From a virus (lineage: Duplodnaviria > Heunggongvirae > Uroviricota > Caudoviricetes), in the IMG/VR virus record IMGVR_UViG_2648501437_000035: 23,537 nt of DNA; one strand, given 5' to 3'. Each line of letters begins with the position of its first letter. Positions within the stretch are counted from its first letter, which is position 1. Below are positions 1-660 of the stretch, in pieces. The notes under the pieces are model-generated. The model had not been told where the DNA came from, made no database searches, and saw only the letters and a program-made list of their open reading frames with translations. The translations under genes and the position numbers were made by a program.

Positions 1-474
1 GCATGATACCGATAAAAATCGCCCATAAGATCTTATCGAAATTGTAACCGCCAGCGCAATCGCTGCTGACAGTAGCAAAAGAGGTACCTGAATCTTCTGT
101 CTCAATATAGAAAACTCAATAATTGCCGGCACAAACAATAATTCCACAGCAAAATAAAGGCGAAATACATTTAGCTCTTGCATAGAATGTTTTCTTTTCA
201 CTGCGAAAAAGAATACAACACCAATACCCCAACCGATAAGAAATATAGCAATGACGATAACTGCAAAAAATAAACTTCTGGCAACATCATCAACACCTGC
301 ACCTACAATCCACCATGGGAAGCCGTAGTAAAAAGAAGTACCCCATCCATAGAAATAAGCACTCCCCCATCCAAGGCATCCCATGTAGGCAATAAAAAGT
401 GAAGAACTCCTGAGCAGCGCACCATCCTTCATAACCACCCCAATACAAGATGATAACATTGGCTTACAACTCAT
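1..474 (-). CDS. partial CDS (N-terminal part; continues beyond window start): polytopic integral membrane protein, function unknown
   Basis: Hand translation of the minus strand gives an open frame from ATG at 474 (alternative ATGs at 459 and 432) to position 1 with no stop. Product has several hydrophobic helices (LFFAVIVIAIFLIGWGIGVVFFFAV; VPLLLLSAAIALAVTI). Absent from the ORF track because it has no in-window stop. First gene downstream of the late promoter/terminator. Confidence 0.45.
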   Translation of the reverse strand, partial: MSCKPMLSSCIGVVMKDGALLRSSSLFIAYMGCLGWGSAYFYGWGTSFYYGFPWWIVGAGVDDVARSLFFAVIVIAIFLIGWGIGVVFFFAVKRKHSMQELNVFRLYFAVELLFVPAIIEFSILRQKIQVPLLLLSAAIALAVTISIRSYGRFLSVSC

Positions 475-570
475 AACAAAAGCAATTCAATGCCGTCAAG
501 AGGTTACAGGCTAAAAAAACTCTATTACATAGCAGCCAGCATGTTTACCGTACAAGTACAACTCAGGGCA

Positions 571-600
571 TAAAAAAAACCCACTCGGCAGCGGGTTTAT
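571..600 (-). terminator. rho-independent terminator (tR'-like, downstream of putative late promoter)
   Basis: Minus strand reads AAACCCGCUGCCGAGUGGG followed by U8: 6-bp GC-rich stem (one G-U), 4-nt loop, then a run of 8 T. Lies about 40 nt downstream of the Q stop. Confidence 0.6.
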
Positions 601-631
601 ACATTTTTTACAACATACCAAATTTGCATGA

Positions 632-660
632 AGTATATGGCTTTTAATCCAGTTTTGCAA
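632..660 (-). promoter_or_regulatory. sigma70 promoter, candidate Q-dependent late promoter (pR' analogue)
   Basis: Minus strand TTGCAA (655-660), 17-bp spacer, TATACT (632-637). Overlaps the 3' end of the Q-like gene and sits just upstream of the terminator, as expected for a pR'-qut-tR' arrangement. Confidence 0.5.

Follow-up and report, generated by a model that had tools for sequence, protein, structure and literature searches.

A phage 82-type late switch that probably feeds a TfpB-family membrane-protein gene in a mosaic lambdoid prophage

The question raised by the locus

How is a membrane-protein gene that lies directly behind a Q-like antiterminator gene expressed, and what does it do at a position where Shiga toxin (Stx) phages carry their toxin genes? 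The question arises at the left end of IMG/VR record IMGVR_UViG_2648501437_000035, a 23,537-nucleotide (nt) stretch of Caudoviricetes DNA that is referred to here, at its full length, as the window. An initial annotation had placed a promoter over the 3' end of the Q-like gene and, behind it, a terminator and a membrane-protein open reading frame (ORF), and all three are present at those places on the minus strand. Coordinates below are window positions, and the whole switch and its cargo are on the minus strand unless stated. The window is a mosaic lambdoid prophage whose closest relative has its integrase beside ybhC, and no complete Escherichia coli genome in our collection covers more than 66% of it.

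We consider it highly likely that the locus is a phage 82-type late switch, consisting of a late promoter (pR'), a sigma70 pause, an intrinsic terminator (tR') and Q read-through, that feeds an accessory gene, or moron, encoding a TfpB-family protein with an envelope role; this last attribute is the least certain part of the explanation. Homology, motif anatomy, terminator stability, distribution and gene contexts were computed directly, and the start site, pausing, Q dependence, membrane topology and cargo function were deduced from them. The features that carry the argument are as follows.

1333-644, minus: Q antiterminator gene, phage 82 type, 229 amino acids (PF06323, E 1.1e-91; phrog_304)
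660-632, minus: late promoter pR', -35 TTGCAA at 660-655, 17-nt spacer, -10 TATACT at 637-632 (consensus scan)
625, minus: predicted start +1, the A of AAAT, 7 nt after the -10 hexamer (AAA in 6 of 7 loci)
620-612, minus: putative extended -10-like pause-inducing element TGgTATGTT at +6 to +14, in register with six other Q82-type loci
598-570, minus: intrinsic terminator tR', 9-bp stem at 598-577 and U8 at 579-572
569-433, minus: TfpB leader, with two candidate promoters and a Shine-Dalgarno sequence
432-1, minus: TfpB-family inner-membrane protein gene, first 144 codons, running off the left window edge (full length 238 amino acids)

A phage 82-type promoter, pause element and terminator

Over its full 229 amino acids the Q protein shares 89% identity with Q of phage 82 (X92588; E 1e-153), which has been studied experimentally. 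A phmmer search of the PDB with a Q82-type Q at E<=0.01 found no related protein with a known structure. The Q stop codon (646-644) falls inside the spacer of pR', and the last Q codons overlap the promoter. Up to and including the -35 hexamer, the window has the same sequence as the end of the phage 82 record (...aatattgcaaaactggattaa). We aligned seven Q82-type loci (the window, Escherichia albertii, PhiR47_2, PPompW, Enterobacter ENT1, Salmonella ZC-S1 and Klebsiella RothC), and the -35, the spacer motif AAACTGGATTnAAA, the -10 and TGrTATnnT are common to all of them, while the AAAT start is kept in six, RothC reading TACT there. The conserved spacer AAACTGGATTnAAA is a candidate Q-binding element.

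PhiR47_2, whose Q is 97% identical to 82 Q, provides the register for the downstream sequence. It reads TTGCAA-17-TATATT-ttatgt-AAATCTGATATTTTGCC, and with +1 at the first A it has an extended -10-like element at +6 to +14 and GCC at +15-17. The published features of 82 pR' are an extended -10-like pause inducer, a GCC discriminator at +15-17 and a pause at +25 (PMC5001585). In this register the window reads AAATTTGGTATGTTGTA; its putative pause element, an extended -10 at about +6 to +14, matches the TGaTATTTT-GCC of PhiR47_2 and PPompW, and TGTA stands at +23 to +26 as it does in both. Pausing is predicted near +25 (position 601). This element was absent from the initial annotation and is added here as a correction. 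The likely start site is A625, and the slippage initiation published for 82 pR' (cited in PMC5001585) agrees with the predicted AAA start.

The stem of tR' begins 33 nt past the -10 hexamer, the hairpin spanning +28 to +49, and thus lies downstream of the predicted pause site. Its folding energy (dG) is -12.0 kcal/mol (z -4.2), with 0 of 200 shuffles equally stable, and the RNA from +1 to +60 folds at -15.8 kcal/mol (z -3.3). A terminator at this site is annotated in the phage 434 record. The strong terminator that had been proposed about 25-50 nt after the promoter is therefore borne out, and the predicted terminated RNA is about 54-56 nt long.

Between the window and phage 434 (OL657226) there is 100% identity over the 291 nt that run from the 3' end of Q into the leader, and the full-length downstream membrane protein is also identical between the window prophage and phage 434. 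Taken together, positions 660-570 are in sequence a phage 82-type pR'/pause/tR' module, and the earlier reading of the locus as pR'-qut-tR' architecture agrees with the 89% Q identity, the shared -35, the putative pause element and the identity to phage 434. The pR'-pause-tR' arrangement was already known, in kind from phage 82 biochemistry and in sequence from the annotated phage 434 genome.

An alternative is that the promoter and terminator motifs are juxtaposed by chance, or that the hairpin is the terminator of the Q transcript and there is no late promoter. Promoter-like sites in 2 kb number 4, with 4.9 expected, and terminator-like sites 2, with 1.9 expected, so that neither is commoner than in shuffled sequence and the case for the switch rests on context and comparison. 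The composite Q82-type pattern (-35, 17 nt, -10, 6 nt, AAATyTGrTATnnT) has a single match in the window, at 612-660, and occurs in 0 of 100 shuffles; the combination of motifs exceeds chance, whereas single motifs do not. The module is furthermore in register across the seven Q82-type loci, which come from Escherichia, Klebsiella, Enterobacter and Salmonella, and is identical in the functional phage 434. Chance juxtaposition is thus extremely improbable.

A further motif overlaps this promoter on the other strand. Positions 655-668 (plus) read TTGCAATATTTTGC, which fits the CII-binding consensus TTGYN6TTGY, is antisense to Q and overlaps the palindromic pR' -35; the phage 434 record labels it paQ. 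It is kept in phage 82, PhiR47_2 and PPompW and lost in the Klebsiella, Enterobacter and Salmonella Q82-type loci. About 3 matches to the CII consensus are expected by chance in the window, and no good -10 was seen downstream of the motif at 655-668.

Distribution of the segment and the short terminated RNA

The 141-nt promoter-terminator segment was found in 620 of 5426 complete E. coli genomes, with at least 99% identity in 611. The serotypes carrying it are largely O157, O26, O103, O111, O145 and O55:H7, and in O157:H7 it is located in the prophage with nleB2, nleC and nleH1-1. Carriers of the cargo gene make up about 12% of complete E. coli genomes, mainly Shiga toxin-producing E. coli and enteropathogenic E. 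coli.

This conservation bears on whether the tR'-terminated RNA of about 55 nt could itself be a functional, trans-acting small RNA, constitutive in lysogens, like StxS. Lambdoid phages have a constitutive pR', and in Stx phages the terminated leader acts as a small RNA that binds Hfq (PMC7547250); the RNA predicted here would combine A-rich sequence with a stable terminator hairpin and a U8 tail, and its segment is at least 99% conserved in 611 genomes. That conservation is, however, explained by the recent spread of one prophage segment, the sequence from +15 to the terminator differs wholly among Q82-type loci, and an Rfam scan of the terminated RNA region gave no family match above threshold. 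We consider such a role unlikely. The sub-threshold Rfam matches, STnc240 (28 bits against a gathering score of 55) and Phe_leader, were driven by the terminator and judged to be due to chance.

A mosaic joint at the predicted pause site

Similarity to the other Q82-type phages extends no further than 611 (+15). From 597 (+29) onwards the sequence is homologous to prophages in which a lambda-type Q precedes the same membrane gene (phage 2B8, E. coli F8704-2 and a contaminant contig). The Q-pR'-pause unit is therefore joined to the cargo cassette within about 14 bp, at the predicted pause site. Terminators in the other folded Q82-type loci are of similar strength and start at about +46 to +53 in two of them; the joint at 598-611 puts tR' of the window, at +28, unusually near the promoter.

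In the lambda-type contexts (L003 3383-3670; L034 3452-3730; L006 1390-1670), the terminator copy is degraded by a 4-nt deletion and substitutions, reading AACCTGCCGCCGAGTAG----TTTTT, and a scan between the lambda-like pR' and the TfpB gene found no terminator. Behind a lambda-type Q, the TfpB gene might be transcribed constitutively from pR'.

Start, family and structure of the TfpB protein

RefSeq gives the coding sequence 247 amino acids from ATG 459. Homologues are nearly all 237-238 amino acids long and start at the equivalent of ATG 432, which is preceded by a Shine-Dalgarno sequence (GGGGTGG, 441-435). ATG 459 lies upstream of the start expected for a transcript from a promoter-like site at 479-450 and would be excluded from it. 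The true start is most likely ATG 432.

The initial annotation had described the cargo as a polytopic membrane protein running off the window edge and as neither a holin nor a recognised toxin. The ORF is hydrophobic, the full gene encodes 238 amino acids with five predicted helices and a beta domain, and a separate holin gene lies downstream. Of the HMM and structure searches, which had also been proposed, the PHROGs scan matched phrog_1521 (E 1.9e-154), and all PHROGs matches were to families without an assigned function. All 104 of 104 homologues carry the precomputed PF27470.1, named TfpB; the assignment was made through the homologues' annotation and through the 90% cluster representative of the identical protein (P0001, 1 amino acid different). 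The name presumably recalls the tfpB ORF of the Moraxella bovis pilin inversion region. It is a small family, which accounts for 72 of the 50%-identity clusters among 1.84 billion representatives.

AlphaFold modelled the protein poorly from enterobacterial sequences alone (pLDDT 60) and reached pLDDT 80 and pTM 0.73 when Pasteurellaceae and more distant members were added. The architecture of about 240 amino acids comprises an aromatic/glycine-rich first helix (GWGSAYFYGWG, the most conserved part), four more hydrophobic transmembrane helices and a five-stranded C-terminal beta domain. Foldseek searches of the PDB and BFVD with this model returned nothing at E<0.001, a PDB sequence search found no relative, and at E<=1 PADLOC gave no match to a known defence family, a search that an undescribed exclusion function would escape. 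The charge distribution (positive-inside rule) suggests an N-in, C-out topology, and the beta domain is probably periplasmic.

At 33-39%, the GC content of the TfpB gene is well below the 47-50% of the Q and lysis genes and so fits an add-on gene. The gene is also found behind three Q families and stand-alone, and is dispensable in phage 434B, in which DLP12 DNA has taken the place of about 5.5 kb that held Q, the late promoter and the lysis genes and which is still viable (PMC9119081). These properties are those of a moron.

Beyond the window, TfpB is followed by a DUF3927 gene, a NanS-p esterase gene in some relatives, and then holin, endolysin and spanin genes. A membrane protein encoded by the first gene of a late operon, upstream of the holin, could be a component of the lysis cassette such as a holin, an antiholin or a lysis regulator. 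Its 238 amino acids, five helices and beta domain set it apart from holins, the genes downstream already supply a class II holin, an endolysin and spanins, and homologues occur at non-phage chromosomal sites. Phage 434B lacks the TfpB gene, though its whole lysis region was swapped too, and deletion of the Salmonella homologue STM1630 leaves growth normal. A lysis function is accordingly very improbable.

The next gene after TfpB (L001 7472-7630, minus) encodes a 52-amino-acid DUF3927 membrane protein (PF13064, E 3.4e-14). It accompanies TfpB in prophage contexts, and its PHROGs label, 'TciB-like', is merely a phage P1 annotation.

The leader and a candidate promoter of its own

Two promoter-like sites lie within the TfpB leader.

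499-494 and 475-470, minus: candidate own promoter 1, TTGACG, 18 nt, TATGAG (consensus scan)
479-474 and 455-450, minus: candidate own promoter 2 with extended -10, TTGTTA, 18 nt, TGtTATCAT (consensus scan)

These sites raise the alternative that TfpB expression in the lysogen comes chiefly from a promoter of the gene itself, in the manner of a classical moron, with tR' insulating the gene from pR' and Q read-through being incidental. Diverged alleles (56-68% protein identity) keep a -35-like TTGACG/TTGATT at 61-68 nt before the ATG, and the second site has an extended -10. Homologues without any Q exist in Citrobacter, Salmonella, plasmids of enterotoxigenic E. coli (ETEC) and Pasteurellaceae, and STM1630 has a mapped start site and condition-specific expression. 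On the other hand, the candidate -10 hexamers are poor. To judge from the genome organisation, late transcription in phage 434 must moreover pass through the TfpB gene before it reaches the lysis and morphogenesis genes, which follow on that strand, and this would make expression Q-dependent in any case. The two modes are compatible with each other. Expression mainly from an own promoter is a substantial possibility, if one against which we lean slightly; besides Q read-through from the phage 82-type switch, the TfpB gene may plausibly have its own promoter, weak and silenced.

A MAFFT alignment of the STM1630 promoter with pR' had raised the idea that the former is a relic of the latter; it was rejected, as neither the -35 nor the spacing matches.

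Genomic contexts of TfpB

About 15 distinct TfpB contexts were examined. E. coli TfpB lies in the Q-to-holin interval behind three Q families, the Q82, lambda and PF06576/PF06530 types. The Q82-type contexts are those of the window and phage 434, together with L039-41, which have a 56%-identical allele directly after Q. Behind the PF06576/PF06530 type (L036-L038, 1-7717), the order is Q, a 65-amino-acid gene, an N6/N4 methylase, tRNA-Met/Lys, TfpB, LpxR, PmrD and a NanS-p esterase. This is the layout of a Stx2-phage late region with TfpB-LpxR-PmrD in place of stxAB. The comparison with the Stx toxin slot made in the initial annotation therefore holds for the cargo in the Q-to-holin interval, and a diverged allele lies between the tRNAs and NanS-p, exactly where stx2AB lies.

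Outside these late regions, TfpB is divergent from eltAB in ETEC contigs (L021-L024), with flanking insertion sequence elements and STb nearby. In Citrobacter rodentium (L025) it is divergent from a split lpxR, in Salmonella (L026/L009) the homologue is divergent from sseJ with steB in the neighbourhood, and in Glaesserella (L012) it is convergent with cdtCBA. Another copy lies near iro-like genes and a bor gene. TfpB genes among housekeeping genes occur in Aggregatibacter (two copies per genome), Haemophilus ducreyi, Pasteurella and others.

In Salmonella the homologue is STM1630: its length (717 bp) and its distance from sseJ (425 bp) both agree, the published STM1630 knockout primer encodes NSSMLLAYLGGLGWG, and the protein is 46-48% identical to that of the window. 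STM1630 is H-NS-bound and non-essential and has no assigned function; its start site has been mapped, and its -10 is disrupted in ST313 strains. It is expressed in medium inducing Salmonella pathogenicity island 2 and in macrophages, its deletion in strain 4/74 led to higher intramacrophage replication, and mutants were attenuated in calves and chickens in an earlier screen (PMC6785131 S1 Text).

The neighbours of Q and the lpxR genes beside TfpB

Upstream of Q, the window carries two genes that recur in related loci.

1348-1470, minus: ylcG-like small gene directly upstream of Q (context as in DLP12 and phage 82)
1809-2768, plus: lpxR, outer-membrane lipid A 3'-O-deacylase family, a low-GC moron that recurs beside TfpB genes elsewhere

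lpxR and TfpB are neighbours in three arrangements. They are divergent with ylcG-Q between them in the window and phage 434 (1809-2768 plus, 1-432 minus), divergent and adjacent in C. rodentium (L025 2863-4717), and convergent and adjacent, with pmrD next door, in the Stx-like prophages (L036-L038 3501-5419). The alleles co-diverge, TfpB being 68% and 66% and LpxR 70% and 75% identical to the window copies. lpxR and TfpB may form a functional pair or merely share a moron pool. In enterohaemorrhagic E. coli, lpxR has been reported as a member of the Ler regulon (PMC9263587).

Positions 2912-2983 (minus) carry, in the O157 relative and in the phage 434 record alike, the annotation of an N-terminal lambda-type Q gene fragment, an indication that most of an ancestral lambda-type Q gave way to the lpxR-ylcG-Q82 segment. 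Further along, at 5285-7138 (plus), an ORF of 617 amino acids (590 from an internal Met) runs against the direction of the nin-region genes around it. Its match is phrog_9230, a family without an assigned function, and Pfam and PADLOC gave none; it is a large moron, possibly a defence gene.

Proposed mechanism and its weighing

Under the proposed mechanism, pR' would fire constitutively from about A625, and RNA polymerase still bearing sigma70 would re-bind TGgTATGTT and pause near +25. Without Q, transcription would stop about 30 nt past the pause at tR' and leave the RNA of about 55 nt. After induction, the Q82-type protein would accumulate and load at the pause, and the resulting terminator-resistant polymerase would enter the late operon; we infer that expression of the TfpB gene depends on the lytic cycle. 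Constitutive activity of pR' in lambdoid phages has been shown for lambda and argued for Stx phages, and short terminated pR' RNAs are known for lambda, 21, 82 and Stx phages (PMC7547250). The TfpB cassette itself would be a low-GC moron placed by recombination behind three Q families.

For the protein, we propose with low confidence a role in the host envelope or in lysogenic conversion rather than in lysis, boosted by Q read-through on induction. Four observations favour it: homologues that stand alone, a 434B that can dispense with the gene, the data on STM1630, and lpxR and pmrD as recurring neighbours. A broader version, in which TfpB is an accessory factor for the envelope or for virulence, accompanies toxin, effector and lipid-A-remodelling genes and has been wired to Q antitermination by lambdoid phages, seems to us rather improbable. 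The association with toxins and effectors is anecdotal, since it comes from the contexts counted above and most Pasteurellaceae copies lie among housekeeping genes.

Several points weigh against a phage 82-type switch feeding an envelope moron. The initial annotation was right that the promoter lies over the 3' end of Q, but its label 'near-consensus' was generous, as pR' matches just 9 of 12 consensus positions, and promoter-like sites as such are no commoner than in shuffles. At +15-17 the window has GTA and not the GCC that has been shown to influence the 82 pause half-life, so that pausing may be weaker than in 82. The -10 hexamers of the candidate own promoters lack the conserved final T. 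Scans of the cargo protein with Pfam (in a copy without the PF27470 model), NCBIfam and PADLOC gave no functional clue. A phage-specific role is unlikely because most Pasteurellaceae homologues are found among housekeeping genes.

The regulatory part of this explanation is a textbook Q-antitermination switch, the same as in phage 434, and deserves little weight as a novelty. What remains of interest is the role of TfpB at a stx-equivalent slot and its recurrent toxin, effector and lipid-A neighbours: the TfpB/STM1630 family repeatedly fills the late-operon cargo slot that holds stx in other phages. On the broader, rather improbable version given above, TfpB-LpxR(-PmrD) would be a lysogenic-conversion module in the stx slot, silent or weak in lysogeny and expressed in a burst on induction, and in the variant with a lambda-Q-type cassette lacking tR', TfpB would be made constitutively from pR'. 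TfpB can be studied in a classical and genetically tractable phage, since the gene is present in phage 434.

Comparison with known systems

The switch resembles that of phage 82 in its Q (89% identical), its -35, its AAA start, an equally spaced extended -10-like element, and TGTA at the +23 to +26 pause position followed by an intrinsic terminator. It differs in the -10 (TATACT versus TATATT), the pause element (TGgTATGTT versus TGaTATTTT), the bases at +15-17 (GTA versus GCC) and the terminator position (+28 versus about +46 to +53), and homology ends at +15. Phage 434 shows 100% identity across the 3' end of Q, the promoter, the terminator and the leader and encodes the same 247/238-amino-acid protein, and its record labels these parts 'Q82-like', 'terminator' and 'putative membrane protein', but has no annotation of pR' or the pause element. 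Phage 434 also has a NanS-p esterase between cassette and holin, which the O157 relative L001 lacks, and the window comes from another mosaic prophage. The phage 434 genome paper remarks that lambdoid phages vary in their morons (Feiss et al. 2022, PMC9119081).

Stx phages (Q-pR'-tR'-stxAB-nanS-p-S, with StxS RNA) share a constitutive pR', a nearby terminator, Q read-through and cargo in first position. They have another Q family and a pR'-tR' spacing of 258 nt, compared with a leader of about 55 nt in the window, and their cargo is an AB5 toxin rather than a membrane protein of no assigned function. STM1630 and the other PF27470 proteins have the same length and architecture as TfpB of the window, but no Q accompanies STM1630 or the Pasteurellaceae members, which stand alone in the chromosome. 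Finally, the lambda morons bor and lom are, like TfpB, low-GC, non-essential late-operon inserts that occur in several contexts, and TfpB may resemble them in having its own promoter; TfpB differs from them in lying directly after tR' as the first late gene, not after Rz or within the tail genes.

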